A DNA stretch of 64,000 bases from Nitrosopumilus sp. (GCA_963662625.1 OY759726.1:352001-416000), one strand, 5' to 3'. Positions 27,741 through 55,351 are shown, counted from the stretch's first letter. Notes: generated by a model not told the origin, from the letters alone. Translations and numbers: made by a program.

Positions 27741-28340
27741 CTAGAAATGTCCCTCGAACGCCACCTCGGACAGGGGAAGCTGCCCTCCCCTCGGGGGCGG
27801 ATCCGCCGCCCTCTTGCCCACGACCACCATCATCGTGATGACGTGGTCCGGCGGCAGGTTGATCATCTCCCCTACCCTGCCAAAATCGAACCCCTCCATG
27901 GGGCACGAGTCGTAGCCCATGGCCCTCGCGGCCAGCATTATGGTCTGGGCCGCCAGGCTGCAGGATCTGAACGCCTCGTCCCTCTCCAGGCCCTCGTTCC
28001 CCCCGTACGACCGCCTGATCGCGTCGGCGACGCCCCTCCGCTGCCCCTCGGGAAGGCTCTCCCAGTACCTCTCGGGATCCCTGTCCCACGCCTTCAGGTC
28101 TGCGCACAGGACGATCACCAGGGACGCCTCGGCCACCTGCCTCTGGCCGTACGACAGCCCGCACAGCCTGTCCTTTGCGGCCTGCTCGGCCACCGTGACG
28201 AACCTCCAGTTCTGGATGTTGTAGGACGTCGGTGAAAGTATTGCAAGTTCCAGCAGCCGCCTGACCTCGCCGCGGGGCATCTCGTGCCTCCTGAATCTCT
28301 TGACCGAGCGGCGGCTCCTGATCGCCTCGAACGCGTCCAT
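27741..28340 (-). CDS. Nitroreductase family protein
   Basis: IRSRRSVKRF, SPTSYNIQNWRF, GYDSCPMEGFD. Confidence 0.92.
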   Translation of the reverse strand: MDAFEAIRSRRSVKRFRRHEMPRGEVRRLLELAILSPTSYNIQNWRFVTVAEQAAKDRLCGLSYGQRQVAEASLVIVLCADLKAWDRDPERYWESLPEGQRRGVADAIRRSYGGNEGLERDEAFRSCSLAAQTIMLAARAMGYDSCPMEGFDFGRVGEMINLPPDHVITMMVVVGKRAADPPPRGGQLPLSEVAFEGHF

Positions 28341-28407
28341 GGTTACATGGTGGTCGCCTGGCCTCGCTAAATAAAGGCTCGGCACGGCGCCGCGCCACGG
28401 CCGGCCC

Positions 28408-31400
28408 TCACGGCGGCACCAGGCCGATCTCCATGGGAACGGTGGAGCCCGGCGCGGGGTCGGCAACTGTCAGCATTCCCGGAACCCTGGATGCGGGATC
28501 CCCGGGGGAAGTCGCATGCCAGTACAGGAGTACTGCTTGCGCACGAAAGTCCGCGGGAACGATGTCCGTGGATGCGGTGCCGCCTGCGTCGGTGACCACA
28601 TCCCACGTTTCGCCCGTGGAGTACGTGTGTATGCGGACGGTCACTCCGGGCAACGCGGGCTCTCCGGCGTCCCTGGTGCCGTCGTAGTCTAGGTCGCGGA
28701 ATGTCGTGACGTTGAGGGTGACCGCCTCGGACGGCAACACCGGACGGAACCCCGCGTCAAACGTCGCGGTCTTGCCCGGTCCAGGACTCACGTACGCGTA
28801 GAACGGACCGGTGGTGATGACGTGATCAAACGGAAAGTACGAAGTCTGCACCAGTACCGTTTCGTCCATGGCGTTTATGCCAAATATGTACGTGCCTCCT
28901 GCGTCGGTAACCGCTTCCAAAACGGCATGTGGGCTTGCGGGGTCTATCACATGCATCGTGTACCCGGGGATTCCTGCCTCTCCCGCGTCCCTTGTGCCGT
29001 TGCCGTTCGTGTCGTAGAACACCGTGCCTGCCACGATCACCGGGGCGGCCGTGGGGCCGTCTGCAACCGTGACGGTGATGCCCATTGAGCTGGGATGCCC
29101 AAAGCCGCCGGAGGACACCACGGTGATGTCGTAGGACGCCTTTGCGTACTCGGCAGACTTGGACAGGAGCACGTTTCCGCGCACCTCGAACAGATCCCCG
29201 TCTCCTTCCGGGACCACGCTGTACGAGGGGTTCTGCCCGTCAAGGAACCTGTTCTGCGCCGCGAGGGTAGTTACTGCGAGGTCGCCAACTGCCACCTCGG
29301 TATCGCCCGGCACGACGTACCAGTCTCCCAGATCTTGGTTGAACGAGTCCGCGCCTGAGAACATGCCGGACATGTCGGTGGCGGCAGAGACGTCCCAGGA
29401 GTCCAGGGGCTGGTTGAAGGATCCAGCATCCCGGAACATGCTCGACATGTAGGCGACACTTGAGACGTCCCAGGAGCCCAGGGGCTGGTTGAAGGATTCA
29501 GCATCCCGGAACATGTCGGACATGTCGGTGGCGGCAGAGACGTCCCAGGAGTCCAGGGGCTGGTTGAAGGAGGATGCAAACGCGAACACGCCGTACATGT
29601 CGGTGGCGGCAGAGACGTCCCAGGAGTCCAGGGGCTGGTCGAAGGAGAAGGCACCCATGAACATGCCGGACATGTCGGTGGCGGCAGAGACGTCCCAGGA
29701 GTCCAGGGGCTGGTCGAAGGAGTTCGCTCCCGCTAACATGCCGGACATGTCGGTGGCGGCAGAGACGTCCCAGGCGTCAAGGGGCTGGTTGAAGGATTCA
29801 GCATCCCGGAACATGCCGGACATGTCCGTCACGCCAGACACGTCCCAAGAGGAGATGCCGCCGTTGAAAGAGGATGCACCATGGAACATACGGGACATGT
29901 CGGTGACCTCGGCGAGGTCAGGGGCGTCCGTCGCGTTGTATGTCATGTTGGCCGCGTCTCGGAACGCCGACTCCATCGTGGTCCACTCTGCGGTGCCCCA
30001 CTGGTCTATCGAGCGCAGCTTGGCGGCGTTCTCTGGATCCCCGCCCAGGTAGATCCTCGTAAAGTCGCCGTACACCTGCACGGTCCATGTGCCGGGGGAG
30101 GTGTAAATGTGGGTAGTGTCAGACCTATGCATGCTAACGTGTCCGTCCCCCCAGTCGACTGCATAAGTGCCGGTGGCATCACCTACAGGGATCGTGATTG
30201 TTTCCCCAGGATAGTCAGTCTGCCACGTAGTGACAAACCGGTCGGATGTCGCAGGCGGCTGTATTGGTGGGACTACCGTGATGGTCAGGCTAATGGAGTT
30301 GGGCGACGAAAAGCCCCCGGTGGACACTATGGTGATGTCGTAGGAGGGCTTTGTGTATGTGGGTAATTTGTATTGGAGTACATTCCCATACATCTCGAAC
30401 ATGTCCCCGTCGCCTTCCGGCACGACAGTATATGTGGGGTTCTGCCCCTCAAGGTATCCATTCTGCGCCGTGATAGCAGTTACCATGACCGCGTCGTGGA
30501 ATACCATGGTGGAGACAGGCACGATGTACCAGTCTCCCAGATCTTGGTTGAACGAGTCCGCGCCTGAGAACATGCCGTACATGTAGGTGGCGGCAGAGAC
30601 GTCCCAGGAGTCCAGGGGCTGGTCGAAGGATCCAGCATCCCAGAACATGCTTGACATGTCGGTGACGCTTGAGACGTCCCAGTCGCCCAGATCCTGGTTG
30701 AACGAGTCCGCGCCTGAGAACATGCCGTACATGTAGGTGGCGGCAGAGACGTCCCAGGAGTCCAGGGGCTGGTCGAAGGATCCAGCATCCCGGAACATGC
30801 TTGACATGTCGGTGACGCTTGAGACGTCCCAGGAGTCCAGGGGCTGGTCGAAGGATCCAGCATCCCGGAACATGCTTGACATGTAGGTGACGCTTGAGAC
30901 GTCCCAGTCGCCCAGATCTTGGTTGAACGAGTCCGCGCCTGAGAACATGAAGGACATGTAGGTGGCGGCAGAGACGTCCCAGGAGTCCAGGGGCTGGTCG
31001 AAGGATCCAGCATCCCGGAACATGCTTGACATGTCGGTGACGCTTGAGACATCCCAGGAGTCGAGGGGCTGGTCGAAGGAGGCGTTCTGGGCGAACATAT
31101 GATTCATGTCCGTCACGCCTGACACGTCCCAGGAGTCCAGGGGCTGGTCGAAGGAGGATGCAAACGCGAACATGCCGGACATGTCGGTGGCGGCAGAGAC
31201 GTCCCAGGAGTCCAGGGGCTGGTCGAAGGAGGATGCAAACGCGAACATGCCGGACATGTCGGTGACACTTGAGACATTCCAGGAGTCGAGGGGCTGGTCG
31301 AAGGAGGCGTTCTGGGCGAACATATGATTCATGTCCGTCACGCCCGACACGTCCCAGGAGTCCAGGGGCTGGTCGAAGGAGTTCGCTCCCTCGAACATCC

Positions 31401-32352
31401 AGCTCATGTCCGTCACGCCCGACACGTCCCAGGAGTCCAGGGGCTGGTCGAAGGAGGCGTTCTGGGCGAACATATGATTCATGTCCGTCACGCCCGACAC
31501 GTCCCAGGAGTCCAAGGGCTGGTCGAAGGAGGCGGCGTCCTTGAACATCCCCTCCATGTCCGTCACGCCCGACACGTCCCAGGAGTCCAAGGGCTGGTCG
31601 AAGGAGGCGGCGTCCTTGAACATCCCCTCCATGTCCGTCACGCCCGACACGTCCCAGGAGTCCAGGGGCTGGTTGAAGGAGTCCGCGCCCGTGAACATCC
31701 AGCTCATGTCCGTCACGCCCGACACGTCCCAAGAGGAGGTGCCGCCGTTGAAGGAGGATGCACCATGGAACATACTGGACATGTCGGTGACCTCGGCGAG
31801 GTCAGGGGCGTCCGTCGCGTTGTATGTCATGTTGGCCGCGTCTCGGAACGCCGACTCCATCGTGGTCCACTCTGCGGTGCCCCACTGGTCTATCGAGCGC
31901 AGCTTGGCGGCGTTCTCTGGATCCCCGCCCAGGTAGATCCTCGCAAAGTCCCCCCACACCTGCACGGTGTAAATCCCGGGTGAGTCGTATTCGTGCGTGG
32001 CGTCGCCCGAATGCGTGCCGGTGCTACCGTCCCCCCAGTCCACCGCATAGGTGCCCTCGGCGTCCCCGACGGGGATTGTTATGGACTCCCCGGCGGCGCC
32101 GGTCTCCCAGGTGGTGATGAAGAGGCTTTCGGGCAGCGGCATGGATCCGGCGGGCCCCGCCGGGCTGCCTGCGTGCGTCATGCCTCCGTCTCCCGCGCCC
32201 AGTGCTACAGGCGATGCCACGATCGCGGACGCCATCGCCGCGACTGCGAGACAAAGCACCAAACGCGTTATCAGCACGCGCGCGTTCCTCCCAGTGGGGA
32301 AAGACAGACCGATCCAGCGAACCGTGGCGATCCCGACCCCCAATGACTGCAT
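28408..32352 (-). CDS. BspA/DUF285 leucine-rich-repeat surface protein with PKD-like and SdrD-B-like domains
   Basis: Many 25-aa MF..A.SF(D/N)QPLDSWDVS repeats; two VDWGDG modules; C-terminal DTNGNGTRDAGE and DYDGTRDAGE; signal-like segment; start uncertain. Confidence 0.9.
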   Translation of the reverse strand: MQSLGVGIATVRWIGLSFPTGRNARVLITRLVLCLAVAAMASAIVASPVALGAGDGGMTHAGSPAGPAGSMPLPESLFITTWETGAAGESITIPVGDAEGTYAVDWGDGSTGTHSGDATHEYDSPGIYTVQVWGDFARIYLGGDPENAAKLRSIDQWGTAEWTTMESAFRDAANMTYNATDAPDLAEVTDMSSMFHGASSFNGGTSSWDVSGVTDMSWMFTGADSFNQPLDSWDVSGVTDMEGMFKDAASFDQPLDSWDVSGVTDMEGMFKDAASFDQPLDSWDVSGVTDMNHMFAQNASFDQPLDSWDVSGVTDMSWMFEGANSFDQPLDSWDVSGVTDMNHMFAQNASFDQPLDSWNVSSVTDMSGMFAFASSFDQPLDSWDVSAATDMSGMFAFASSFDQPLDSWDVSGVTDMNHMFAQNASFDQPLDSWDVSSVTDMSSMFRDAGSFDQPLDSWDVSAATYMSFMFSGADSFNQDLGDWDVSSVTYMSSMFRDAGSFDQPLDSWDVSSVTDMSSMFRDAGSFDQPLDSWDVSAATYMYGMFSGADSFNQDLGDWDVSSVTDMSSMFWDAGSFDQPLDSWDVSAATYMYGMFSGADSFNQDLGDWYIVPVSTMVFHDAVMVTAITAQNGYLEGQNPTYTVVPEGDGDMFEMYGNVLQYKLPTYTKPSYDITIVSTGGFSSPNSISLTITVVPPIQPPATSDRFVTTWQTDYPGETITIPVGDATGTYAVDWGDGHVSMHRSDTTHIYTSPGTWTVQVYGDFTRIYLGGDPENAAKLRSIDQWGTAEWTTMESAFRDAANMTYNATDAPDLAEVTDMSRMFHGASSFNGGISSWDVSGVTDMSGMFRDAESFNQPLDAWDVSAATDMSGMLAGANSFDQPLDSWDVSAATDMSGMFMGAFSFDQPLDSWDVSAATDMYGVFAFASSFNQPLDSWDVSAATDMSDMFRDAESFNQPLGSWDVSSVAYMSSMFRDAGSFNQPLDSWDVSAATDMSGMFSGADSFNQDLGDWYVVPGDTEVAVGDLAVTTLAAQNRFLDGQNPSYSVVPEGDGDLFEVRGNVLLSKSAEYAKASYDITVVSSGGFGHPSSMGITVTVADGPTAAPVIVAGTVFYDTNGNGTRDAGEAGIPGYTMHVIDPASPHAVLEAVTDAGGTYIFGINAMDETVLVQTSYFPFDHVITTGPFYAYVSPGPGKTATFDAGFRPVLPSEAVTLNVTTFRDLDYDGTRDAGEPALPGVTVRIHTYSTGETWDVVTDAGGTASTDIVPADFRAQAVLLYWHATSPGDPASRVPGMLTVADPAPGSTVPMEIGLVPP
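29330..31790 (-). repeat. Two arrays of 75-bp DUF285 repeat units (approx. 29330-29900 and 30530-31790)
   Basis: GTCCCAGGAGTCCAGGGGCTGGTCGAAGGA core recurs at 75-bp period. Confidence 0.92.
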
Positions 32353-40111: not shown

Positions 40112-40187
40112 CGGCGCGCCCCCGCCGGCATGGCGGGTCGCGCGGGCGCCCGGGCGGCCATCTGCGGCGCGGGCCTCCTTTGTGCAG

Positions 40188-40660
40188 TGTATGAAAAGCC
40201 GGTCCGCCAGCCATCAGTGCCCGCCCCCATCCGCCCGGGGCCGTTTTTCCTGATCGCGCCCGTGGCATTCTTGTCACGGAAGGCCCTCGGCGGGGCCTGG
40301 CAGTTGCCGGCGTCCGGGGAGAGGTGCAGCCTGTCCCCGTTGCAGTGCGCCACGTGCCCGGGCATGCTCCCGCGGTGCCATGCCCCGTCCCCCGCGCCCC
40401 GGAAGAGCCGCCCGGCCTTCCCGCTGGCCTGGGGGCCGCGCGGCCCGGAGCTTGCGGGCCCGGCGCCCCGGCCGGGGGCCCCGCCCCGGACGCGGCGGGC
40501 CTCCGCGGCCGGGGAGGGGCCTTCCCGCGGCCGCTCCGGCCCACGGGGCACGGGCCGTTGCCGGGGGGCACGGTCGCATGCGTGCCGAACCGCCCGGTCG
40601 CGTCCCCGGGCGCCGGCACAGCGTCCCCCGGCGCGGCCTGCGCGGGCACGCGCGCCGCGG
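40188..40660 (-). mobile_element. Degenerate IS481-like (integrase core) transposase 3' remnant
   Basis: GRFGTHATVPPGNGPCP resembles FGxPxxILSDNGSxF; HCNGDRLHLSP..CQAP resembles YNxxRxHxSL..xTP; TGTATGAAAAG end at 40188. Confidence 0.65.
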
Positions 40661-41135
40661 CCGCATGACCAAGGCGGGGGCCCCGCCGGTGCGGCATCTG
40701 CCGGCGGGGGCGGCGACGGTGCACGTGGCCGTGGCGGCCAGAAGGGGGCCTCCCGCCCCGACCGGCGCGTCTTGCCACGGGACTGCAGGGAAGCGCGGGG
40801 GTTCCAAGGCAAGGGCGGCGGCTGCCGCCAAGATGCCGGGGATCGCGCCCTGGATGCCGAAGGAGGGGACTGGCCCTGGGGCGTGCCCGGCGGGGGCAGG
40901 AAGTGCACGGAGCGCGGGGAGGAGCGCGGGGCATGAACGCGGGCCACATCATGGCCAGGGGCTTGTGCGTTTGAACCATGGGGTTCGATGCCCGACCCAG
41001 CAGCTACACCCAGGCCCTGACGAATGGATGGAGATGGTGCTGGGATTCGATGCCCGAATGGACACGTGTCCGCACCATCCCTTGGAAACGGACGCCGCCC
41101 AGCGTGAGCCATGCCCTGACGCATGAAAGCGGCCG
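40656..41135 (+). mobile_element. Degenerate IS110-family C-terminal remnant plus non-coding right end
   Basis: RGRMTKAGAPPVRHLPAGAA...KRGGSKARAAAAAKMPGIAPWMPKEG resembles GRITKxGxxxxRxLLxEAA...KRGxxKAxVAxAxKxxxIxxxMLK. Confidence 0.65.
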
Positions 41136-41178
41136 CCATATTTATTAAGATTGCACACAGGCAGTTATAGAACTAATA

Positions 41179-41748
41179 ATGACTTGGAAAAATTCAAAAC
41201 AGACACTGCCTGTAATATTTACAATTACAGCTCTTCTAATCGCAATCCCTGGAATCGCATATGCAAATACAGAACCTTGGACTTGGCCATCAGCTGATCA
41301 ACATTATCTGTGCACATCATCTGTGCCAAATATTACCCATACATCAAATGTTAATCCATGTGGTGACTTGAACAGTTCATCTAATGTTTGGGAAGCAGGC
41401 TCAGGTAACTCTTGGGATCTTGATCCATCTAGTAGTGGTTGGCCAGTATATGCATGGAGTCTTCCATCTGGAACTGGAGGCGAAACATATGTGGCATACA
41501 ACTCTAGTGGTGAAGCACGTTATGCATGGATAGTTATGAACAAAAATTTGTCTTGGGAAGATTCCAATAAAGACTGGTGGACTAGTGGTTATGACTGGAG
41601 AACCTTTACTGGTCATGAGTTTGGCCATCTGGCAGGAATATCTCATACATCAAATAGTAATTCCATAATGTATGATTCAAGAGGACCTAATGACGCAGAA
41701 CGCAGCCCCCCACAACATGAAATAAACCACATGAAGGACAAGTATTGA
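41179..41748 (+). CDS. Secreted matrixin-like (metzincin) zinc metallopeptidase, AT-rich
   Basis: Signal peptide (..IAYA), HEFGHLAGISH, Met-turn SIMY. Confidence 0.85.
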   Translation: MTWKNSKQTLPVIFTITALLIAIPGIAYANTEPWTWPSADQHYLCTSSVPNITHTSNVNPCGDLNSSSNVWEAGSGNSWDLDPSSSGWPVYAWSLPSGTGGETYVAYNSSGEARYAWIVMNKNLSWEDSNKDWWTSGYDWRTFTGHEFGHLAGISHTSNSNSIMYDSRGPNDAERSPPQHEINHMKDKY

Positions 41749-42314
41749 AGATGATTAACAAAGTTATATTTTCAATATTGGTGATTGCCGTTGCAAGCAT
41801 CTCATTTACTGCTTTGTTAACCAATCAGGATAAAGAGATGAATGTACAAGAAGAGATTACAATTCAGAAAATGAGCTCCTATATTGCAACTGATGTTGAT
41901 GAAATAAAAGCTCTGTCGACTGTAATTTTGGAGGGAAGAGTTATTGACAAATATGTTGTGATGGAGTCAAGAGACGAATTTGGAAAGTTTGTAGATAACG
42001 ATTCAAGCTTGGCAGCAGTAACATATCCTAACATCATATATGAAGTCAAAACAATGGTAAATTACAAGGGCGCTGAGCAAGACAGCATATTGTTGCAAAT
42101 TCCAGGCGGAACAATGAATGGAATTACTGTTACCTCAGACCATGTTGAATATGCAGTTGGAGATATTGTTGTTGTCTTAGTTGATGGGCCATTTGAAAAT
42201 GGATATTATCAACCAACATCTGGCCCACACTCTATATTCAAAATAGACGGTGATTTGGCATCTACGGTTAGAGGCAGCTTGAATGCCGACCAACTAAAGG
42301 ACTCACTAGACTAG
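41745..42314 (+). CDS. Membrane-anchored/secreted hypothetical protein coupled to the peptidase
   Basis: TTGA overlap; N-terminal TM; ILEGRV, QIPGG, VGDIVVV beta-rich domain. Confidence 0.8.
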   Translation: MKMINKVIFSILVIAVASISFTALLTNQDKEMNVQEEITIQKMSSYIATDVDEIKALSTVILEGRVIDKYVVMESRDEFGKFVDNDSSLAAVTYPNIIYEVKTMVNYKGAEQDSILLQIPGGTMNGITVTSDHVEYAVGDIVVVLVDGPFENGYYQPTSGPHSIFKIDGDLASTVRGSLNADQLKDSLD

Positions 42315-42346
42315 AGTGACGCTCATAAATAATTTCCTCCCTGAGA

Positions 42347-43661
42347 CAGTTAAGCGAAATGTACCCGATCCTGCCCCCTCATGGCGGGGGCTTGGGCTCC
42401 AGTATCCTGGCCGACTCCAACTGGCAGGCGAACGCCCGCTGGGCCGTCACGCCGTTCCCGCAACCCCTTCCAGAAAGGACGGCCCGCACCACCACCCACT
42501 CGTTGTACGCCAGCAGCGAGTAGCAGGGGCACGGCATGCGGGCCCCCTCGTCGGCGACCCTAGTCTTGGCCCCCATGGGCCCTGTAACCCTGTACGACGT
42601 CCCGGTGCCCCGCCTGCGCGGGTACCCCCTTGCGCTGGCTGCGGGACGGTTGGTCGCAAACCCGACGTGCCGCTCCTCAGGGACGGGGGGATCGTCGCAC
42701 TTCTTCCTCTCCTCGATCTTGACGTGGTACCCCGCGGAGTTCCGCCCCCCGGCCGCCGCCGGGGACACGCCGGGCCTGGCGTTGCGCGCGGACTCCCGCA
42801 GCGCGGCCACCGCGTTGCCGGTGTTCCTGCACGGCACGGGGTACCCGGTGCGGGCCCTGCCCGGCGCCCTGACCGTCCCCGCCGCGAGGGACTCCCTGCT
42901 CGGCAGGACGGGGCCGGGCCCGATTCCGGCGTCCCGGACAGACCGCAGCGCCCTTTCGACGAAACCGGGCACGGAACCGGACATGCTCGCGCGGTACGCG
43001 CCCAAAACCAGCGGGTACCTGCCCCCGACGCACCGGGCCGCGGCGTGCCTCCCGGACAGCCTGGTTCCGTTCTTGCTCCCGGGGCGGGTCAGCCCGGGCC
43101 CCGGCGCGGAACCGTGGCGCGGTATCAGGTGCATGCCGGTGGCGACGGGGGGCTTGCGGGGCAGCCTTCCGGCCCTTTTGGGCGCGGCCGCTTGCCTCCC
43201 CACGGCGCCGCCGAGGGCATCCTGGATCCCGGCGCCGCCGGCCCCCCGGGCGCCAAGGCGGACCGCCTGCCCGGGGGGGCCGCCCTGCTGTGCACGGCCT
43301 TGGCCGCGTTGGCGCACCCCCCGACCTGGTGCGGGACAGGACCGGGGAGCGGTGCCACTGTGCACGGCCTTGGCCGCGTTGGCGCACCCCCCGACCGACG
43401 AGTCCCGGAGCGCGGCCCCAAGCATGCCCCGGCTGGGGGCGCCCGCTCCAAACACGGCGTTGCGGCCCGCTGGCCGCATGAGCTGGGCCAGGAACCCGCG
43501 CATGCCTGCGACGACACCCTGATATAGGCGGGGGTCGTTCACCATGTCGCGGCCCTGGCGGGTCTTGTTTCGAGACAATCCAAGTCTTGTCGGGGCCCAT
43601 CCCCTGTTGATCTGTTTGGAATTGCGAGAGTTGACTATTTGGTCTACTTTTCGCTTAACTG
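42347..43661 (-). mobile_element. Nested degenerate ISH3-family element (1315 bp) with 6-bp TSD CTGAGA
   Basis: TIR CAGTTAAGCGAAATGTA / TACTTTTCGCTTAACTG; CTGAGA at 42341-42346 and 43662-43667; YPRRRGTGTSYR is a decayed YxxRWGIETxYR. Confidence 0.9.
43288..43396. repeat. 39-bp direct repeat enclosing a 31-bp unique insert
   Basis: CTGTGCACGGCCTTGGCCGCGTTGGCGCACCCCCCGACC at 43288-43326 and 43358-43396. Confidence 0.93.
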
Positions 43662-44381
43662 CTGAGAGGGGGCACTGCAGAAAAGCCTGTTGATCACCGG
43701 ATCGCCGAACCATCCACGGGCGGGACCGACAGGAAACCGCGGGACCTGACGGAGGCCATGCGCGCAGAGAGGGACGCCAGGATCCGCAACAGGACGGTGG
43801 CAGTGCGCGGGGTGCCCGGCGGATACCCCGCGAGGGACGCCGCGTACTTCGTAGACGTAGAACAGCGCACAGTCCGCCCGTGGGCGGGACGGTCCGGCAC
43901 CGGCGGCCTCCGGGACATTCCCGGCAGGGGAAGGAACCCGCGCGTCCGGTACGGCCCCATGGGCAGGCTTGCCGGCAGGCTCGGCCGCATGGGCATGCCC
44001 GCGCCGAGGAAGCTCCGCAACAGGGTGCGCGGGGTGCCCGGGCGCGCGCACGTCCCGTGCAGCGTGCGCAGGATCATGAGGGAACTGGGGTTCTCCCCCA
44101 AGAGGCCCGCCACCAAATATGCAGCTGCCGCAGGCGACGACGCGGTGCGGCGGCTGCGGGCCTGCGCCGCAGGCGCGATTCTGCGCGCAAGGAGGCGCAA
44201 GACGGCGACAGTGGTGCAGGACGGGCCCGCCTTCGTCAGGATGGGCACCAACGGCCGGAGGCTGTGGTCCCGCGTAGGGGAGGGGGCCGCCGCCGGCAGG
44301 CCCGGCAGGAGGGACAGGGCAGCCGCGTGCGGCTCCCTCGCGGCCGACGGGACGGGGCCGGTGCGGCCGTGCGGCAGGCCC

Positions 44382-44492
44382 GGTGGGGACACCTTCCTGG
44401 CGTACCCCAGGGAGATCCATGAGGCTGTGACATGAGGTGCGTGATCTGCCGGAGGGGTGGGGACACCTTCCTGGCGTACCCCAGGGAGATCC
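44382..44492. repeat. 37-bp direct repeat enclosing a 37-bp unique insert
   Basis: GGTGGGGACACCTTCCTGGCGTACCCCAGGGAGATCC at 44382-44418 and 44456-44492; single copy in IS630 copy B. Confidence 0.95.
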
Positions 44493-44811
44493 GGCGCAAG
44501 CGGGGGCGCGCGCCGGTGGCAGCGGGCAACGCGGGGCAGCACGGGACGGCGGACGCGGGGGAATGCCTGCGGGACCGCCGAGAGATCGAGGCACTGTACC
44601 TTCCCACCGCCACGCCGAAGCCCGGCGCGGCGGGGGCCGTGTGGAAGGAGGCAAAGCACGGGCGGGTCACGTCCAGGCACCACGGGACGCTGGACGGCTT
44701 GAGGCGCTCAGTCTCGGAGTATTTCAGGACGTGCCCGATCAGGGCGGGCACCTGCAAGTTCCTGTACCGTTCCATATGAGGGGAAATTTTCAATAATCGT
44801 CACTATAGGCC

Positions 44812-44830
44812 CTTTTTTCTTTTTTTATTT
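44812..44830 (+). terminator. Oligo-T terminator, originally directly after the 41745-42314 gene
   Basis: CTTTTTTCTTTTTTTATTT follows the regenerated TAG after IS630 copy A. Confidence 0.55.
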
Positions 44831-44845
44831 AAGTAATCTAGAATA

Positions 44846-45500
44846 TAGCTTGGTGCGTAACTGCCAGAAATTGCCGGGTCTAATCAGTTAACCCATAGCA
44901 CAACCATGCCAAACCGAAAAGGCCTTGGATCGCGGCCGCGCACCGTGCCCGTTGGCCGCAACCGACAACGGGAAGTGCGCCAGGCGCGGGCGGGGCCTGG
45001 CGGTGCCGCATGACCCCGGCCGGGGGGCGGCCTGAGGGAGGCCAACGCAGGCAAGGAGGGCGCCCCGTTCAGGTACGCCGGGGCGCTGGTCATGGCGGCG
45101 GCCGCGCTGGGGACCGCGTGGGGGATCCGGTACAGGCAGCTGTCCGGGCTCCTCGCGGGGATGCTGGGGGGGCGCGGCGCGGGGCGGTGCGGGACCGGCC
45201 GGGGGGCGGCCCGGAGGCGCGCGCCGGCAGGGTGGGCACGGAGGAGAGGGAGGAGAACGTCCGGTACCGGGAGGCCAGGAAGGGGCACGGCAGGAGGTGG
45301 CTGACCGGGATAACCATGTCGGCGTTCAAGAGGATGTTCGGCGACCACGCGCGCTCGCGCAAGTGGGAGAACATCGTGCAGGAGGCAAGGCTCAGGATGG
45401 CCCAGTACAACCGGTGGGCGGGTGAGGCGGGGGCGTAGGGACTCCAAGCGGCACGGCCTGGCCACGGCCCGGGGATCGTGCCGAGTTGTGCAACAGACTA
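44846..45500 (+). mobile_element. Internally deleted IS5-family (IS903-like) element, 655 bp, 8-bp TSD CTAGAATA
   Basis: TSD at 44838-44845 and 45501-45508; imperfect TIR TAGCTTGGTGCGTAACT / TAGTCTGTTGCACAACT; fragments NAGKEGAPFRY..YRQLSG and GRRWLTGITMSAFKRMFG..YNR. Confidence 0.8.
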
Positions 45501-45544
45501 CTAGAATAGTAAAGGGTAAAGCATAGTATGTCATAATAGGTATA

Positions 45545-46435
45545 ATGACTGGAAAAAAGACAATCATAATTGCTTCATTGATTGCTGCAGTGTTAATCCC
45601 ACTATCACTACAAGTAGGAAGTGCTGACCAAAACACTCAGGCTCAAAATGTAAAACAACTGTTTGCAGATGTCGACCAAGAGATTAGACAGTATGTAAAC
45701 GGAGATATGAAAAACCCTGAAGACAAAAAAGCACAACTAATTGAAAAGTATTCAAACAATCTTGAGGCAATAATCAATACCATAACAATTCATGACAACT
45801 TACAATTTGACTCTGAAGTAGAGGGAATAAAAGAGTTGATTATCTCAGAACACATGAGTGAGGTAAATAGACAGAAAATAATCTCCCAAATCCCTGATGA
45901 TGCCATTACAGAAACTATAGAGGTAGAACCTGATTTATCCAAACAAGGGGTATTTGAGCTGCCAAAGGCATATGCTGCCGGAAATCCATACCCAATAAAC
46001 ACATGGAAACAAGTAACCCATGACAGAACAGGCGGTTCTGGTACTGACAGTTCTGGTAACTCTTACAACATCAATGGCAACAATCACTTTACCTCACTAT
46101 CAACCTCATATACATCATCCAAAGTAACATACACTTTGACATTCAAAGATGAAGACCACCCAAATCCATTCTGGGATAAATTTTGGGATAATTGGAGACA
46201 GATTCAGTATGGTAGGACCACTGATATCGAATCCTTCACAGTTGATTCTAATGGGGTAAAGTTTCCAGGAATTTGGGATAATGACAAGACGTTTGCAGAG
46301 TTTATGGGTCAACATGGTACAAAAACCAGATCATACTATTCGGGAATGAGTATCTATGTTAGTAATGTCTGGAATCATGCTATGGATACAACCAATGAAA
46401 ACCCTGGAATGTCAATTACAACATTGACTACATAA
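45545..46435 (+). CDS. Secreted hypothetical protein (296 aa), AT-rich
   Basis: Signal peptide; acidic helical N-half; second AYA site; C-half with FKDEDHP, GRTTDIESF, VWNHA; oligo-T follows. Confidence 0.82.
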   Translation: MTGKKTIIIASLIAAVLIPLSLQVGSADQNTQAQNVKQLFADVDQEIRQYVNGDMKNPEDKKAQLIEKYSNNLEAIINTITIHDNLQFDSEVEGIKELIISEHMSEVNRQKIISQIPDDAITETIEVEPDLSKQGVFELPKAYAAGNPYPINTWKQVTHDRTGGSGTDSSGNSYNINGNNHFTSLSTSYTSSKVTYTLTFKDEDHPNPFWDKFWDNWRQIQYGRTTDIESFTVDSNGVKFPGIWDNDKTFAEFMGQHGTKTRSYYSGMSIYVSNVWNHAMDTTNENPGMSITTLTT

Positions 46436-46498
46436 CCTTTTTATTTTTTTAAAAATATGAATGAAAAACCACTAGTTGCTAAATTTAACATCTATGTA

Positions 46499-47591
46499 TA
46501 GCAACGCGCATAAATTCATGAGACCAATTTTGTCAGGCCAAAACACATTTTGATCGCGGCGTCCCACGCAAGCCATGGCCACAACCACGCCGGAAGATCC
46601 CTGGGAGGCGTACAAAAAAGAGAAGGGCCCAAGGGTGATCAAGGGGATGGCCGCGGCGAGCATGGTGTGCATGAACGATGAAAGCGTCCAACACACGGCA
46701 GACTCCATCATGCAGTGCCCCGACCGGGTGTCGTTCCGGGCGGGACACCTCGGGGAGGGCGGCACCGGTGCCCCCCCTGGAACCTTCCCAAGGGCGGGAG
46801 GCCTCCAAAGGCCAGGCTTGAGGAGATCCAGGGCATGCCGGGCGGCACGGGCGGCACTGCCACCCCGGCGGGGCCCCACGACGACATGCGGAGAACGCCG
46901 GGCGCGGCATACCGCGTCGCGTAGGCCGGGAGGATCATAGGGAACACCGGCCTGTCCCCCAAGGCGCCGCAGCGCGCCCGCGCCGGCAAGGCGGCCCGGG
47001 CGGGACACGCGGGCGGCAGAAGAGGGCAAGGGGGAAGATCCCGCGCCGGGAAGGGCAGGATCTTGCCACGGTAATGCCGGGCGGGGTGTCTGCACACACG
47101 ACCCGGCGGCCGGGAGGAGGTGCCGGTCCCCCGGGGGCGGACGGATCGTCGTGGGGGGCACGACGGCAACCGCTGCAAGACGGTGGCGTACGGGGCGCCG
47201 GCAGCTGGCGGGCGCAGGCACTTCCGCGTTCACGACAGGTCCGGCAGGGACAAGTTCCTGCCGTGCCCCAAGGGGCCGCGCCGACGCTTCGGGAGGGTGC
47301 ACGCAATGATGGACGGCGCGTCGCCCCACGCTGCCGGGGCCGTGAAAAGATACGTCCCGCGCAGCCCCGGCACGGGGGCCGTGTGCCTCTTCGCCGCCAC
47401 GCCGAAGCCGGACGCCACGGGGGAACACTGGCGCAGGCCAAGGCGCGGCACCCGGTGCCGGGCATTGCAGGACGTTCGGGGAGGCGTGGCGCACCCTGTC
47501 CGAATGCCCAGGGACGTCCCACGCCAACCTGGGCGTTATGGGGCACACCGGCAGGAAATCCTTGGCGCTCAAGAACTTTTGAGCGTTGCTA
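46499..47591 (+). mobile_element. Degenerate IS630-family element of a second subfamily
   Basis: TIR TAGCAACGCGCATAAATTCATGAG / TAGCAACGCTCAAAAGTTCTTGAG; AYKKEKGPRV, MMDGASPH, ATPKP fragments; frameshifts; TSD TA on left, TG on right. Confidence 0.85.
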
Positions 47592-47730
47592 TGCTAGAGT
47601 TAGACGGTAAAATTGTAGGCAGGATGGATATCCCACAAGGAGATCTTAGTCTTTCTCATGATGATATAATTAAAATTTTAAAGCAGCAAATCAAAACACA
47701 ACTAAAATTAAAAGAAGGGCATGAGAACAA

Positions 47731-47782
47731 CCACAAGAATCATGATAAAAAATACCACAAGAATCATGATAAAAAATACCAC
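47731..47782 (+). repeat. 24-bp tandem duplication CCACAAGAATCATGATAAAAAATA
   Basis: Read directly. Confidence 0.9.
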
Positions 47783-47791
47783 TAGAAAAAA

Positions 47792-49188
47792 TTACTGCAG
47801 ATAGCTAGGAATCTTTTTTATAATGTATGAAAGTGATATTTTTCCAGGACCGCTAACAATTACAAACAAACATGCAGATACCTGGAATAAATTCAGCTAG
47901 AGTGACGCTCATAAATAATTTCCTCCCTGAGAGGGGGCACTGCAGAAAAGCCTGTTGATCACCGGATCGCCGAACCATCAATGGACGAGACCGACAGGAA
48001 ACTACGGGACCTGACGGAGGCCATGCGCGCAGAGAGGGACGCCAGGATCCGCAACAGGATGATGGCAGTGCGCGGGGTGCCCGGCGGATACTCCACGAGG
48101 GACGCCGCGTACTTCGTAGACGTAGAACAGCGCACCGTCCGCCTGTGGGTGGAACGATCCGGCGCCGGCGGCGCCGGTGGCCTCCGGGACATTCCCGGCA
48201 GGGGAAGGAACCCGCGCATCCGGTACGGCCTCATGGGCAGGCTTGCCGGCAGGCTCGGCCGCATGGGCATGCTCACGCCGGGGAGGCCCCGCAACAGGGT
48301 GCGCCGGAAGCCCGGGCGCGCGCACGGCCCGTGCGGCGTGCGCAGGATCATGAGGGAACTGGGGTTCTCCCCCAAGAGGTCCACCACCAAATATGCAGCT
48401 GCCGCAGGCGACGACGCGGTGCGGCGGTGGCAGGCCGACGCCGCAGGCGCGATTCTGCGCGCAAGGAGGCGCAAGACGGTGACAGTCGTGCAGGACGGGC
48501 CCGTCTTCGCCAGGATGGGCACCAACGGCAGGAGGCTGTGGTCCCGCGTCGGGGAGGGGGTCGCCGCCGGCAGGTCCGGCAGGAGGGACAGGGTAGTCGC
48601 GTGCGGCTCCCTCGCGGCCGACGGGACGGGGCCGGTGCGGCCGTGCGGCAGGTCCGGCGGGGACACCTTCCTGGCGTACCTCAAGGAGATCCGGCGCAAG
48701 TGGGGGCGCGCGCTGGTGATAATGGACAACGCGGGGCAGCACAGGACGGCGGACGCGGGGGAATACCTGCGGGACCACCGAGAGATCGAGGCACTGTACC
48801 TTCCCACCGCCACGCCGAAGCCCGGCGCGGCGGGGGCCGTGTGGAAGGAGGCAAAGTACAGGCTGGCCACGTCCAGGCACTACGAGACGCTGGACGGCTT
48901 GAGGCGCTCAGTCTCGGAGTATTTCAGGACGTGCCCGATCAGGGTGGACACCTGCAAGTTCCTGTACCGTTCCATATGAGGGGAAATTTTCAATAATCGT
49001 CACTATAGTGCAATTGGTATTTGCATCTCTACAGGTATTCCCATACTTGATATCCAGTTACCAAATCCTGGATTACCAAACTTTCCTACTCCGTGAGCTA
49101 TAAAGATTACTCCAATGACTGATCGCAGTCCCATATTTACAATATCGTCAAATTTGGATATTGAAAATCCCGTATTTTCTTCAATGGT
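47792..49188 (-). pseudogene. DoxX-family membrane protein gene split by IS630 copy B, with internal deletion and lost start
   Basis: GLRSVIGVIFIAHGVGKF...MQIPIAL / AEFIPGI resumes across the IS; ..VIVSGPGKISLSYIIKKIPSYLQ* in a shifted frame. Confidence 0.8.
47900..49005 (+). mobile_element. IS630-family element copy B; ORF 47981-48979 open but probably inactive
   Basis: TA TSD at 47898-47899 and 49006-49007 (CTAG target); MDNAGQH kept, but QDG for QDE and PKPGAAG for PxLxxxE. Confidence 0.92.
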
Positions 49189-49257
49189 ACGGAAAGTCGG
49201 TCCGCGCCGGATCAAGAGGACGGTAGCCGACTATTTTAGGCTGTACCGGTCACGGAA

Positions 49258-50726
49258 GTATGAGGTCACGTATGCTGACCCTTTAATCAACAAGGCGCGA
49301 TCCTGCTGATCCTTATTGCAGGAGGTGCCAGTACGTGCGTGGCAAGGTGCAGAACGACCAGGCAGCCGGGGGGCCTGCTGGCACGGGCGCTTGACGATAT
49401 CGACTCACTCAAGTCAAAATACATGGAGGCGGTGGCAGATAACAAGAGGCTCCAGGCCCGCCTCGCGTACTACGAGAACGCCCATTCCCCGCCGTCGGCC
49501 AAGTCGCTGGAATGGAAGGAGGCCAGGCGGGCGAGGAGGAAGGCCCGGAAGGCGGCGCCGGAGGGGGGCGACGGCGCCCCCGCGAGGAGGCCCGGCGGGC
49601 AGCCGGGGCACCGCGGGGCGTCCCGCAGGCACGCGCCGGGGCGCACGGCGCGCCACGGGTCCGATGGGGGCGTCCCGCCAGAATGCGGCCGGTGCGGCCG
49701 CGGGACCGTGCCGGGCAGGCCCGCCGCGCGGGACATCCCGGACTTCGAGGTGGTGGTGACGGAGACGCGGCATGCCGTCCAGACCGCCGTGTGCCCCAAG
49801 TGCGGCAGGGGGCACGTGGCGCCAAGCGGCCTCCCGGCGCGCGGGAGCTACGGCAAGAACACGGTGGCCGCGCTGCGCCACGCGGCCGTCCCGTTCGGGA
49901 AGATAGCGGGTGCCGTGCGGGAGATCACCGGGGTGAGGATCGCGAAACCTGCAGCCATAAACGTGACGGGGCGCACCCGCGACGCGATGCGCGGGCCGTT
50001 CCGGGACATCGTGGGCCGCGCCAGGAGGTCCAAGAATGCCGGGGCCGACGAGACGCGCGCCATCCTGGCGGGAGAGGACGGGTGGGCGCGGGTCATCCAG
50101 TCAGGCAGGGACGCCGTGATCGTGCACGGCCGGAGCAGGGGGCCGCGGGTGCCAGGCAGGCACGCGGGCGGGTACCGCGGGATCGTCACGTCCGACAGGC
50201 CCTCCGCGTACGGGAGGTCCGGCCCGGGCGGGCGCCACCGGCCGTGCCGGCCCCGCGGGCTGCGGGAGCTGCGGCACGCGGCGGAGAGGAAGGGGACGAC
50301 GCCGCGCGCCGGGGTGCCGCGCCGGCAGGTGTCAGGCGCGTACGCCGGGGCGCTGGCGGCCGCCGCCCCGGGCAGGCACCCGGCGCGCCTGCGCCGCGCC
50401 TCCGGGTCTGGGATGCGCAGGCTGCTGTTCGGGCACGGGGACGCCGGGGGCACCGCGCTTGCCCCACTGGTGGGCAGGCTGCAGGCGCCGCTGCCCCACC
50501 TGTTCACGTTCCCGGGGCACAGGGGGGCGGGGCCCACGAACAACGCCCCCGGGCGCGGCCTGCGGCATGTGGTGGTGTCCCGAAAGATAAGCGGCCAGAC
50601 CAGGGGCGGGAAGCCCTGGAGGGACAGGTGGTCCTACTTCATGACGTGCATGATCACGTGGGAGAGGCACGGGAAATCCCTGTCAGGCGAGGTATCCAAG
50701 ATAGTGTAGGGGTGGTGACCTCATAC
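49258..50726 (+). mobile_element. IS66-family element; stop-free but degenerate transposase 49339-50709
   Basis: Perfect 12-bp TIR GTATGAGGTCAC; NAHSPPS, GGQPGH, CPKCG, ADET, TSD, PTNNAPGR (for TNNxAER), RKISG; no TSD. Confidence 0.9.
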
Positions 50727-50781
50727 AACTAGTACTTTAATAAAGTTTAATATATTGAGCTTTGATCTAACCGATAGTCAG

Positions 50782-54139: not shown

Positions 54140-55351
54140 TCAAGCTCTTTTTGTTTTCTTTGATGGCTTAGTTTTCTTCGCGGGCCTGGTTTTTGGCGCC
54201 GCGCTCTTCGCGGGCCTGCCCGGTTTAGCCTTGGGGGCCGCGCGCTTCGCGGGCCTGGTTTTTGGCGCCGCGCTCTTCGCGGGCCTGCCCGGTTTAGCCT
54301 TGGGGGCCGCGCGCTTCGCGGGCCTGGTTTTTGGCGCCGCGCTCTTCGCGGGCCTGCCCGGTTTAGCCTTGGGGGCCGCGCGCTTCGCGGGCCTGGTTTT
54401 TGGCGCCGCGCTCTTCGCGGGCTTCCTTGCAGGTTTCCTTGCGGGCTTTGCGGCCCTCTTCGCGGGCTTCCTTGCGGGCTTTGCTTTGGTGGCCGCGCTC
54501 TTCGCGGGCTTCCTTGCAGGTTTCCTTGCGGGCTTTGCGGCCCTCTTCGCGGGCTTCCTTGCGGGCTTTGCTTTGGTGGCCGCGCTCTTCGCGGGCTTCC
54601 TTGCAGGTTTCCTTGCGGGCTTTGCGGCCCTCTTCGCGGGCTTCCTTGCCGCCGTCCTCTTGGCGGCGGCCAATTCCGCCATCCTGGCCGCCTTCCTTGC
54701 GGCGGCCTTTCTTTTCTTGGCCAGGAATTCCCTGAATTGGGAATTGGCCGCGTCGAACCGCTCCGCGGCGGATTTTTCCAGCACCTCGGTCTGCTCTAGT
54801 TCCTTGGCAAAGCTTGCGATGGATTTCTTGCTGGAGGCCACTAGGCCGGACAGGGCGGGCTTGAGCTTTGACTGTTTCTGGATGTTGGTGCCGATGTGCG
54901 ACTTTAGCGCGGAATATTTTGAGATTTCCTTGGAGATTTTCTTGGCCGTGGCCTTCCTGGAACGGATCTCCGACTCCAGTTCCCCGATGCGCTCGTTGAT
55001 GAGCCGCCGCCTGGACTCTGCCTGTTCCGTCTCGACTGGGCCGTCGGCGAACTCGACCTCCTGCTCGGCTTGGGAGGCGGCGTCTTTTTCCCTGGCCAGG
55101 CGCTCCTGCGCGCCCGCGATCAGGCGGCCGATGCTTTCCGACTGGGAGATCCTCTGCTGCAGGTCGGCGGAGACCCCTTCCACTGACTCCCTTGCGGACT
55201 CGATCTTCCTTGCGATGGAATCCAGTCGCGTCTCGGAGCGCCTTTGATCTGACCTTGCCTGCTTGAGCTGCAGTTCTATTTTTTTCCGCAGCGCCGTGGC
55301 CTCGTTTTTTTTCTGTCTCAGGCCGGAGACCGTGTTTTCTAGCGATGACAC
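54140..55351 (-). CDS. Coiled-coil protein with histone-H1-like Pro/Ala/Lys/Arg repeat tail
   Basis: Long heptad region followed by PAKRAAKPARK.. repeats. Confidence 0.8.
   Translation of the reverse strand: MSSLENTVSGLRQKKNEATALRKKIELQLKQARSDQRRSETRLDSIARKIESARESVEGVSADLQQRISQSESIGRLIAGAQERLAREKDAASQAEQEVEFADGPVETEQAESRRRLINERIGELESEIRSRKATAKKISKEISKYSALKSHIGTNIQKQSKLKPALSGLVASSKKSIASFAKELEQTEVLEKSAAERFDAANSQFREFLAKKRKAAARKAARMAELAAAKRTAARKPAKRAAKPARKPARKPAKSAATKAKPARKPAKRAAKPARKPARKPAKSAATKAKPARKPAKRAAKPARKPARKPAKSAAPKTRPAKRAAPKAKPGRPAKSAAPKTRPAKRAAPKAKPGRPAKSAAPKTRPAKRAAPKAKPGRPAKSAAPKTRPAKKTKPSKKTKRA
54172..54650 (-). repeat. Coding tandem repeats: 69-bp x3 and 87-bp x2 plus partial units
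   Basis: PAKSAAPKTRPAKRAAPKAKPGR and PAKRAAKPARKPARKPAKSAATKAKPARK. Confidence 0.92.

Follow-up and report, generated by a model that had tools for sequence, protein, structure and literature searches.

In repeat-induced point mutation (RIP), known from Neurospora and other fungi, repeats accumulate C·G>T·A transitions with a preference for CpA, whereby many stop codons are formed and the mutations taper off at the repeat borders. APOBEC3 acts on single-stranded DNA, where its deamination of cytosine results in strand-asymmetric runs of G>A, and diversity-generating retroelements (DGRs) replace adenine by any base within one short variable repeat via a reverse transcriptase, using a nearby repeat as template.

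We analyzed a stretch of 64,000 nucleotides from Nitrosopumilus sp. (GCA_963662625.1 OY759726.1:352001-416000), referred to as the window, together with related repeats throughout the genome. From sequence comparison within this one genome we conclude that the IS elements of this archaeon have probably been struck by a type of hypermutation confined to mobile elements. Both in the region described below and genome-wide, decayed IS copies differ from intact copies almost solely by A>G and T>C, and about half of the changes are coupled doubles which turn 5'-TNNA-3' into 5'-CNNG-3', i.e. which affect adenines of both strands at a distance of 3 bp. A directional A·T→G·C hypermutation disabling transposases of unrelated families had been claimed in a preliminary description of the window and is borne out for IS elements, not for native genes. 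The coupling of the changes as TNNA>CNNG pairs is a feature absent from that description.

Between 40.2 and 50.7 kb the window contains an IS graveyard embedded in DNA of 35–40% GC. Blocks of 70–86% GC (0.86 for 40400-40599) alternate with spacers of 31–43% GC, and the GC-rich blocks are members of repeat families scattered across the 1,858,698-bp genome. The region consists of the following parts:

40178..41003, no strand: unclassified repeat remnant of family F11, heavily hypermutated, the most GC-rich block of the region (GC 0.75-0.86)
41004..42312, plus strand: AT-rich spacer with two intact ORFs (GC 0.34-0.43), unameliorated foreign-like DNA
42313..42346, plus strand: left end of IS630-family copy A, identical in sequence to the left end of copy B
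42347..43661, minus strand: hypermutated IS4/ISH3-type (DDE_Tnp_1) copy, sitting inside IS630 copy A (target duplication CTGAGA)
43662..44808, plus strand: remainder of IS630-family copy A, hypermutated, with an internal 74-nt duplication; compared with copy B
44845..45504, minus strand: IS5-type (DDE_Tnp_1) copy of family F5, internally deleted and moderately hypermutated
45505..46495, plus strand: AT-rich spacer (GC 0.36-0.40) with an intact 296-aa ORF (45545-46435, GC3 0.33)
46496..47598, no strand: unclassified repeat remnant of family F12, hypermutated; compared with genome positions 347474-348416
47897..49009, plus strand: IS630-family copy B, mutated less than any other member of this family; an open 332-aa ORF lies at 47981-48979
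49003..49215, minus strand: AT-rich N-terminal fragment (70 aa) of a DoxX-like gene, adjoining the end of IS630 copy B
49255..50734, plus strand: IS66-family copy, partly degraded, with ORF 49339-50709 (DDE_Tnp_IS66, E 2.8e-9)

The ISH3/IS4-type element, whose insertion severed the left end of IS630 copy A from its remainder, has four masters elsewhere in the genome (99.6–100% identical). The 92 differences leading from master to copy include 40 of type A>G and 35 of type T>C, with 19 TNNA>CNNG doubles. Within the ORF, 80 of the 91 differences lie at codon positions 1 and 2 and 79 are nonsynonymous, while no stop occurs in the master frame; the reported replacement of WGIET by RGTGT is indeed what the sequence reads. 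The master ORF matches DDE_Tnp_1 and the copy has no Pfam match. For the two IS630 copies, which had been described as differing mostly by transitions, the step from B to A comprises 25 T>C and 23 A>G, the rest being 4 G>A and 4 C>T as well as 11 transversions and 9 gap columns, and 8 TNNA>CNNG doubles were found. Private GC alleles had been ascribed to both copies. This holds for copy A, since the other copies agree with B at 22 A/T to G/C (W>S) differences, but not for copy B, which has at most one and which carries no A>G or T>C singleton when seven lineages are compared. The ORF of copy B matches DDE_3 (E 4.2e-10) and HTH domains; for the remainder of copy A the Pfam search gave no match.

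The other repeats of the region change in the same direction. Compared to a less mutated copy (genome 1674239-1674723), the F11 remnant, which has no match in the Pfam search, exhibits W>S transitions at 77 of 165 W sites along with 7 S>W transitions, 17 transversions and 18 T..A>C..G pairs. In the F12 remnant, 91 of 330 W sites show W>S transitions and 31 of 609 S sites S>W transitions. The F5 copy, whose two blocks are the ends of a 1,297-bp master, carries 34 W>S versus 10 S>W transitions and 20 transversions. Sister copies of the IS66 element are even more GC-rich than the copy found here, from which 63 W>S versus 22 S>W transitions lead to copy 621396 and 62 versus 12 to copy 457221. The ORFs of the first spacer, 41179-41748 (matrixin-like, Peptidase_M10 E 6.9e-7) and 41745-42314, have a GC3 of 0.28 and 0.34, and the 296-aa ORF of the second belongs to no known family and has no Pfam match. 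Dead gene halves were said to have stayed AT-rich, which applies to the DoxX fragment (GC 0.40, GC3 0.31; DoxX E 1.3e-4, 23.0 bits, slightly below the Pfam cut-off of 23.6); a search for the remaining half of this gene did not find it.

Genome-wide, 42 diverged copies were evaluated, in which A>G affected 15.8% of 14,435 A/T site-copies and G>A 2.6% of 32,404 G/C site-copies. For the IS110 family the least mutated copy, 1194284, served as reference. Copies 719418 and 728432 differ from it by 44 W>S transitions and nothing else, copy 476448 by 89 W>S and 2 other changes, and copy 17305, the heaviest, by W>S changes at 199 of 521 W sites (38% of all A/T sites) together with 1 S>W and 4 transversions. 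The change sets are nested, as 44 of 44 and 88 of 89 fall inside the 199 of copy 17305, which might be due to descent or to sites being susceptible in a fixed order. Copies 17305 and 1507275 have 167 W>S changes in common but none of their 8 and 37 others. In line with the earlier supposition that decayed copies are still mobilised, already mutated copies were duplicated again: 719418 and 728432 have all 44 changes in common, and copies 1063441 and 1066494 have in common 74 W>S and 23 other changes.

The polarity of these changes was derived from 38 outgroup transposases, which mostly side with the residue of 1194284 at 36 of 39, 71 of 74, 149 of 157 (the heaviest copy) and 136 of 145 replaced positions. 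Furthermore, the masters of two subfamilies both have T..A where decayed copies of both have C..G. Because intact IS genes already have a GC3 of about 0.9 (masters 0.91), the hits fall on codon positions 1 and 2, where they typically bring about the replacements V>A, L>P, E/D>G or I>T. Along the decay series the Pfam IS110 scores decrease from 98 and 78 bits via 64 and 62 bits to no match. The transposase is destroyed, yet without the creation of any stop codon. Unpaired A>G and T>C on the coding strand were similarly frequent in five of five families, indicating strand symmetry.

Consensus errors gather in repeats, and the GC alleles might thus be an assembly or polishing artefact in repeated DNA. 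However, independently built Logan contigs from three runs match the hypermutated stretches exactly, with no difference at 40314-42340, 45472-46812, 46955-47325 and 47198-47926, and they run from unique AT-rich DNA into the GC-rich remnants, although these three sequence-bearing runs come from one study and may be the source data of the assembly. With respect to the fraction of A/T sites reached, the stepwise erasure of Pfam matches and a pattern that is codon-aware only via the position of A and T, we regard the probability of an artefact as practically negligible.

The coupling was quantified for T(i)..A(i+3). The 1,329 site-copies divide into 896 with neither position changed, 75 with T only, 99 with A only and 259 with both, corresponding to a Mantel-Haenszel odds ratio of 28.6; because the copies are related, these counts exceed the number of independent events, and the inflation is bounded at about 2.5-fold by the spacing and pair-type controls. 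These controls gave odds ratios of 1.0–1.5 at spacings 5–6 and, at spacing 3, of 0.41 for the pairs A..A and T..T. Doubles were observed 233 times versus 35.1 times in 1,000 shuffles (sd 5.7, maximum 54). Among seven copies of 99–99.7% identity, six of nine singleton changes make up three TNNA>CNNG pairs. The excess of TA/CG doubles was found in 12 of 12 catalogued repeat families, including IS110, DDE_Tnp_1 (IS4/IS5-type), IS630 and IS66, and in one further IS630-like family beyond these.

Recurring doubles exhibit the hot-spot consensus S-T-N-N-A-S. A T at −3 contributes +1.16 log-odds, and the doubly changed fraction is 51% for TCGA and 8% for TGCA. When the interior W sites of seven lineages were compared, 211 of 433 were never hit (50 expected) and 26 were hit in all seven (0 expected). 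The rate of doubles is 2–4% at less than 60 bp from an element end and 20–50% at more than 200 bp, whatever the local GC; roughly the last 60–120 bp of each element are spared and the flanks are untouched. The retention of AT-rich termini mentioned in the preliminary description agrees with these little changed ends. In contrast, a GC-context-dependent bias proposed there could not be sustained, as no consistent effect of local GC persisted once the distance from the element end was allowed for.

GC-biased gene conversion among IS copies, likewise proposed there, would spread G/C alleles in short tracts by mismatch repair favouring G:C. It would be consistent with the recurrence of the same doubles in two subfamilies, e.g. 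at master positions 441/445 and 781/784, and with isolated doubles of young copies that are also present in older ones. Conversion, however, requires a source allele, so that the first C..G cannot arise this way, and it is unable to create many private and recurrent new alleles, such as the 44 private W>S changes of copy 1841751 in addition to those of IS630 copy A. Subfamily identity is kept right beside the doubles, and tracts would therefore need to be shorter than approximately 10 bp. Moreover, conversion would couple A..A and T..T neighbours too, which are depleted. In our view this explanation is very improbable.

According to a further alternative, ordinary relaxation, unconstrained dead IS drift to silent-site GC because AT>GC pressure acts on the whole genome, be it through mutation bias or through GC-biased conversion between genome copies, and nothing is aimed at IS. 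The median GC3, taken over 672 long unique ORFs, is 0.867, the IS masters had reached a GC3 of 0.91 and their decay affects codon positions 1 and 2, and the per-site rates given above predict an equilibrium GC near 0.85, approximately the genome GC3. Orthologues in two congeners have a GC3 of 0.35–0.39 compared with 0.87 here; strong lineage-wide GC pressure must therefore have existed, and the IS hypermutation may be linked to it. Relaxation is nevertheless difficult to reconcile with the purity of the young IS divergence (44:0, 89:2 and 199:5), as ordinary divergence in this genome is mixed: two active subfamilies are separated by 51 W>S and 43 S>W changes plus 76 transversions, and in a 7.4-kb surface-protein paralogue pair (97% identity, 2,419-aa protein) the transversions (110) outnumber the transitions (87). 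Of 1,291 W>S changes at four-fold sites of native genes relative to genome G002, 442 are transversions, whereas the heaviest IS copy has no more than 4 among 204 substitutions.

The TNNA coupling was absent from native genes as well. Their T3..A3 pairs are not depleted, and relative to ancestral states the T..A odds ratio is 2.3–4.3, not above other pair types; these controls speak only via silent sites, because selection would purge changes at positions 1 and 2, and the number of informative silent sites is small, some of them being saturated. The TNNA>CNNG pairing is likewise missing from IS copies of a related genome. Since native genes, the paralogue pair and these IS copies lack it, simple relaxation to silent-site GC is disfavoured, and it is further opposed by element ends that are spared regardless of local GC, by adjacent AT-rich ORFs that keep a GC3 of 0.28–0.34 and by the heavily mutated IS110 copies that have no ordinary change in common. 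Consequently, we judge relaxation to be rather improbable.

If repeats were instead sensed by homology and mutated in place, as in RIP, any sufficiently long repeat should be hit, mobile or not. The signature occurs only in multi-copy elements, both strands are hit equally, and the mutation frequency declines towards the repeat edges. Yet the 7.4-kb paralogue pair has 1 TA/CG double versus 53 other doubles, which is weak evidence against repeat sensing because this gene is coding and under selection, and four near-identical and seven 99–99.7% identical IS copies were left unmutated, so that many transpositions leave no mark. Archaea are not known to possess homology-sensing machinery. We consider this explanation unlikely.

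For the preferred reading, a hypermutation aimed at mobile elements, the nature of the agent can be narrowed down. Because both changes of a pair sit in one duplex, a duplex-acting agent with two-fold symmetry would be needed. A strand-symmetric activity on duplex DNA would reach IS DNA in transposition or via repeat sensing, and it might be a dimeric base-converting enzyme; alternatively, a staggered two-strand lesion could be repaired and the resulting G:T mismatches then be repaired towards G:C. IS DNA may be singled out as an exposed transposition intermediate whose ends are covered by the transposase, although we rate this somewhat below an even chance, and in-place sensing of repeated copies appears more doubtful. 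The spared ends and flanks and the nesting without shared ordinary mutations agree with mutations arising at transposition but do not prove it. The inventory of repair and modification genes yielded no discriminating candidate except one extra TGT-family gene, and a search with PF00383 for a lineage-specific deaminase of the CDA superfamily gave one orthologous match in each of the genomes G000, G001, G002 and G008. There is no indication of the lost repair pathway suspected earlier, as NucS and EndoV are also missing from AT-rich congeners.

A literature search revealed no description of such a process, which looks like an apparently undescribed way of mutating mobile DNA to death. With DGRs it shares the adenine-targeted hypermutation in prokaryotes, but here A is converted only to G, T equally to C, and whole IS interiors of 12 repeat families are affected; replacement of adenine by any base was not observed in them. 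Dense clusters of A>G and T>C from both duplex strands resemble the products of ADAR, whose target, however, is RNA, so that the edits are not inherited as DNA. ADARs are not known in archaea, and a single RNA strand could presumably not bring about the two changes of a pair within one DNA duplex. As in amelioration or GC-biased substitution, functionless sequences gain GC towards the silent-site composition of the host. Here, though, hardly any transversions or G·C>A·T changes occur (199 to 5), coupling is seen at spacing 3, and element ends and neighbouring AT-rich DNA are spared; neither the same spectrum or T..A-specific coupling at native neutral sites nor a position-independent action at equal local GC was found.

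APOBEC3 is comparable as a host activity that acts in bursts on transposition intermediates of mobile elements and leaves some copies heavily edited and many untouched. Here the changes are located at adenine/thymine positions, equally on both strands and paired across the duplex, and at least four families of DNA transposons are involved; strand-asymmetric runs were not seen, as A>G and T>C balance in all five families and paired changes lie on opposite strands. RIP is similar in its one-directional transitions on both strands of multi-copy mobile elements, with single-copy genes left alone, in the fading of mutation at repeat edges and in the permanent inactivation. It differs in its direction (C·G>T·A versus A·T>G·C here, where 199 W>S face 1 S>W), in its many stop codons versus none, in its unit, a CpA dinucleotide instead of a coupled TNNA>CNNG pair, and perhaps in the missing signature of the non-mobile paralogue pair, a coding gene under selection. 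Furthermore, RIP calls for a RID/Dim-2-type cytosine methyltransferase and a premeiotic stage; the host here is an archaeon without a sexual cycle, and meiosis is not known from archaea. Tentatively, the observations could be explained by a natural A·T→G·C activity on duplex DNA that acts on two adenines across the helix and serves as a transposon-killing genome defence, whose leakage may have helped to raise the GC content from about 40% to 63%. Such an activity would be the equivalent, in a prokaryote, of RIP and APOBEC, with its chemistry running the other way.

The genome under study is a single contig of 1,858,698 bp with 63.4% GC, of which the window covers positions 352001–416000. Dispersed repeats make up 13.2% of the genome, with a mean GC content of 68.2% versus 62.7% in the remainder. 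Between 40.2 and 50.7 kb of the window, blocks of 70–86% GC alternate with blocks of 31–43% GC at a block size of 0.3–1.4 kb, and each of the GC-rich blocks there belongs to a repeat family with copies throughout the genome. The families, named from a Pfam run on the best-preserved copies, comprise IS110 (DEDD transposase), three or four DDE_Tnp_1 families of the IS4/IS5/ISH3 type, two IS630-like families and one IS66 family.

Repeat copies between 40.2 and 50.7 kb (window coordinates)
40178–41003, unclassified remnant
42313–42346 and 43662–44808, IS630 copy A, interrupted by the ISH3/IS4-type copy
42347–43661, ISH3/IS4-type copy inside IS630 copy A, target duplication CTGAGA
44845–45504, IS5-type copy, internally deleted
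46496–47598, second unclassified remnant
47897–49009, IS630 copy B
49255–50734, IS66 copy

As the preliminary description had noted, the two IS630 copies differ mainly by A/G and T/C transitions: going from B to A, 48 changes from A or T (W) to G or C (S) face 8 of the type G>A or C>T, the remaining differences being 11 transversions and 9 gap columns. Its reading of WGIET as RGTGT in the ISH3-type copy was likewise borne out on the sequence. Compared with the four masters of its family, i.e. the least mutated, intact copies (99.6–100% identical), this copy carries 92 substitutions, 75 of which are A>G or T>C; of the 91 differences within the ORF, 80 are at the first or second codon position and 79 are nonsynonymous, and no stop arises. 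Over 42 diverged copies from five families, 15.8% of 14,435 A/T site-copies had undergone the transition to G/C and 2.6% of 32,404 G/C site-copies the reverse. The codon-phase table gives 5% outside the ORF versus 14–29% inside; the frames of families F1 and F5 are wrong in that table, so that only this contrast is usable (Pfam places the F1 ORF at 217–1428 on the plus strand and the F5 ORF at 66–1259 on the minus strand). A consensus artefact, which the preliminary description had raised, was checked against Logan contigs from three public runs, possibly the source of the assembly. They reproduce four of the window's hypermutated stretches with 0 differences; therefore, in the contig-covered parts of the window, the hypermutated alleles are not polishing errors.

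Further features of the region were recorded along the way. The ISH3-type copy contains a 70-nt internal duplication (43290–43359), and Logan contigs without these 70 nt derive from master copies; IS630 copy A holds a 74-nt internal duplication at about 44419–44492. The spacers between the IS copies carry intact AT-rich ORFs with a GC3 of 0.28–0.34. Those at 41179–42314 and 45545–46435 (one of them matrixin-like) lie between hypermutated copies and, as they resemble the AT-rich congeners in composition, may be recently acquired DNA. The other half of DoxX was not found among ORFs of at least 25 aa at 47590–47930. Elsewhere in the window, long in-frame tandem repeats at 12234–13076, 29282–31840 and 54176–54670 (periods 30, 75 and 39/87 nt) presumably belong to repeat-protein genes.

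The purity of the change is most apparent in the IS110 family, whose copies, named by their genome start, were each compared with 1194284.

Changes in IS110-family copies relative to 1194284
719418 and 728432, 44 W>S each, no other change
476448, 89 W>S, 2 other changes
17305, 199 W>S (38% of 521 A/T sites), 1 S>W, 4 transversions and 9 gap columns

The W>S sets are nested, with 44 of 44 and 88 of 89 contained in the 199 of 17305. Furthermore, 17305 and 1507275 have 167 W>S changes in common and none among their 8 and 37 other changes. As controls, two active IS subfamilies are 51 W>S, 43 S>W and 76 transversions apart, and a paralogue pair of a 7.4-kb surface-protein gene differs by 87 transitions, 110 transversions and 28 gap columns. 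Judged by these comparisons, what has happened to the IS copies is hypermutation rather than slow decay. IS110-family copies at genome positions 719418–729885 and 1063441–1067538 form nearby inverted pairs which are already hypermutated and have all changes in common; they reflect either dead copies that were mobilised or a local inverted duplication.

Counting singletons across the families (329 W>S versus 410 S>W) was discarded as a measure of direction because it is misleading: the least mutated copies are scored as "G>A". Some copies in this count thus seemingly carry G>A and C>T alone, and one of them is 1194284, the least mutated copy of the IS110 family, with a 363-aa ORF and Pfam scores of 98 and 78 bits. 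Copy 728432, at first taken as the master, scores 64 and 62 bits, and 17305, the most heavily mutated, obtains no Pfam score. The blur was cleared up by outgroups and three-lineage tests. With 38 homologues from other records (56–72% identity) as outgroups, we scored the positions at which a copy differs from 1194284 and at which more outgroups carry the residue of 1194284. The latter was favoured at 36 of 39 replaced positions for 728432, 71 of 74 for 476448, 149 of 157 for 17305 and 136 of 145 for 1507275. Moreover, the masters of two subfamilies, 12.5% apart, both have T..A where decayed copies of both have C..G. On these two grounds it is settled that the changes run from A·T to G·C. The search for related loci gave distant methanogen matches only (24–52% identity) and no outgroup DNA of use, and the same-genus genomes, about 72% identical in DNA, contain no close IS relatives and are too distant to polarise IS nucleotides.

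The changes are strongly paired. Among 7 copies that are 99–99.7% identical, six of the nine singleton changes make up three pairs such as TCGA>CCGG. For T and A three positions apart, i.e. T(i)..A(i+3), the 42 diverged copies comprise 896 site-copies with neither base changed, 75 with T only, 99 with A only and 259 with both (site-copies are not event counts, the copies being related), corresponding to a Mantel-Haenszel odds ratio, stratified by copy, of 28.6.

Odds ratios for other base orders and spacings
T..A, spacing 2, 3.7
T..A, spacing 4, 4.6
T..A, spacing 5–6, 1.0–1.5
A..T, spacing 2–4, 2.4–4.4
A..A and T..T on the same strand, spacing 3, 0.41

When the mutated state was permuted within each copy and base, 1,000 shuffles gave 35.1 doubles (sd 5.7, maximum 54) versus 233 observed. 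Between families, the share of transitions that belongs to T..A pairs at spacings 2–4 ranges over about 30–55%, and an excess of the TNNA>CNNG double was present in all 12 catalogued families and in one further IS630-like family.

Certain sites are preferred. In a sequence-context model T at −3 has a log-odds of +1.16, A at −1 and +1 is disfavoured and G or C at +1 is favoured, from which the consensus S-T-N-N-A-S follows. The double change is found in 51% of TCGA site-copies, 8% of TGCA and none of TTAA and TATA. Of 433 interior A/T sites followed through seven IS110-family lineages, 211 never changed (50 expected) and 26 changed in all seven (0 expected). Outside pairs, A>G and T>C occur about equally often on the coding strand. 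The rate of doubles is 2–4% in the outermost 60 bp of an element and rises to 20–50% at more than 200 bp from its ends, whatever the local GC. The dependence on GC context suggested in the preliminary description is consequently a position effect: doubles track element position at every GC level, so that the apparent influence of local GC is that of distance from the element end, and local-GC dependence was ruled out.

Plain relaxation towards genome composition would ascribe the IS changes to a pressure acting on all genes, and such a pressure evidently exists. Orthologues of window genes (window 14000–29000, loci L022–L027) in two genomes of the same genus show 72% DNA identity, and GC at the three codon positions is 0.47/0.42/0.35–0.39 there versus 0.57/0.48/0.87 here, a GC3 rise of about 0.5 within one genus; the median GC3 over 672 long ORFs is 0.867. 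The spectrum of this pressure is unlike that of the IS copies: at four-fold sites, 442 of the 1,291 W>S changes seen in comparison with the congener G002 are transversions. Adjacent third positions T3..A3 show an observed/expected ratio of 1.66 versus 1.30–2.36 for other W-W pairs, i.e. no depletion. In native genes, at sites where both congeners support one ancestral base, T..A at spacing 3 has odds ratios of 4.3 (positions 1 and 2) and 2.3 (third positions), which do not exceed those of A..T, A..A or T..T (about 6,200–6,700 aligned codons per relative); these negative controls are functional genes. Because of the different spectrum and the missing pairing in native genes, plain relaxation was rejected. 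The same activity may once have leaked onto the whole genome. In the related complete genome G008, IS copies (loci L008, L012, L015, L032–L035) show 115 transitions versus 15 transversions, a high transition bias without TNNA pairing (1 TNNA>CNNG double versus 12 others in 7 pairs, a small sample).

As to the mechanism, both members of a pair lie in a single duplex; two lesions made separately, one per strand, would part at replication, and the pair event thus presumably involves both strands of double-stranded DNA. Each pair comprises two adenines on opposite strands with a stagger of 3 bp towards the 3' side; in B-DNA this is the geometry of bases that face each other across the minor groove. 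The agent might be a two-fold symmetric enzyme acting on both adenines; alternatively, a staggered two-strand lesion might be repaired, followed by G:T repair towards G:C. Since four kinds of transposase are affected, we infer that the agent is a function of the host or of a defence island and not of one transposon. Our tentative suggestion is that mutation would come in bursts on transposition intermediates, the ends being shielded by transposase; that repeats would be sensed in place appears rather unlikely. The spared ends and flanks and the nesting without common ordinary mutations fit both models. Interstrand cross-link repair, topoisomerase or restriction-like staggered breaks, EndoMS cuts, RNA editing followed by reverse transcription, and methylation-linked deamination were set aside as unsupported.

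An inventory of the genome under study, the congeners G001 and G002 and G008 revealed no discriminating family among those listed and no culprit. NucS, EndoV, Piwi and MCR alpha were found in none of the four, each of which has one CDA deaminase, one Y-family polymerase, two UDGs and N6/N4 methyltransferases; HhH-GPD matches numbered 1, 2, 1 and 3, respectively. The sole extra of the genome under study is a second TGT-family gene (genome 1524547–1525443, 90 bits), not found in the other three; linking it to hypermutation would be pure speculation. The N6/N4 DNA methyltransferase match at genome 635603–636544 contains two in-frame TAG codons, which may point to a broken gene or to read-through.

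The whole case is built on sequence comparison and on a single genome, and it gives a concrete lead on GC-content jumps inside a genus. As a signature, TNNA>CNNG pairing is simple, and every genome that has several IS copies can be screened for it. The portion of the literature accessible to our search described no mutational genome defence against transposons for bacteria or archaea, and prokaryotic mutation is held to be A·T-biased (PMC2936535). If the changes are the work of an enzyme, it would rank as the first natural A·T>G·C editor acting on double-stranded DNA, relevant to base-editing technology, and would extend the known defences against mobile DNA by a new class.
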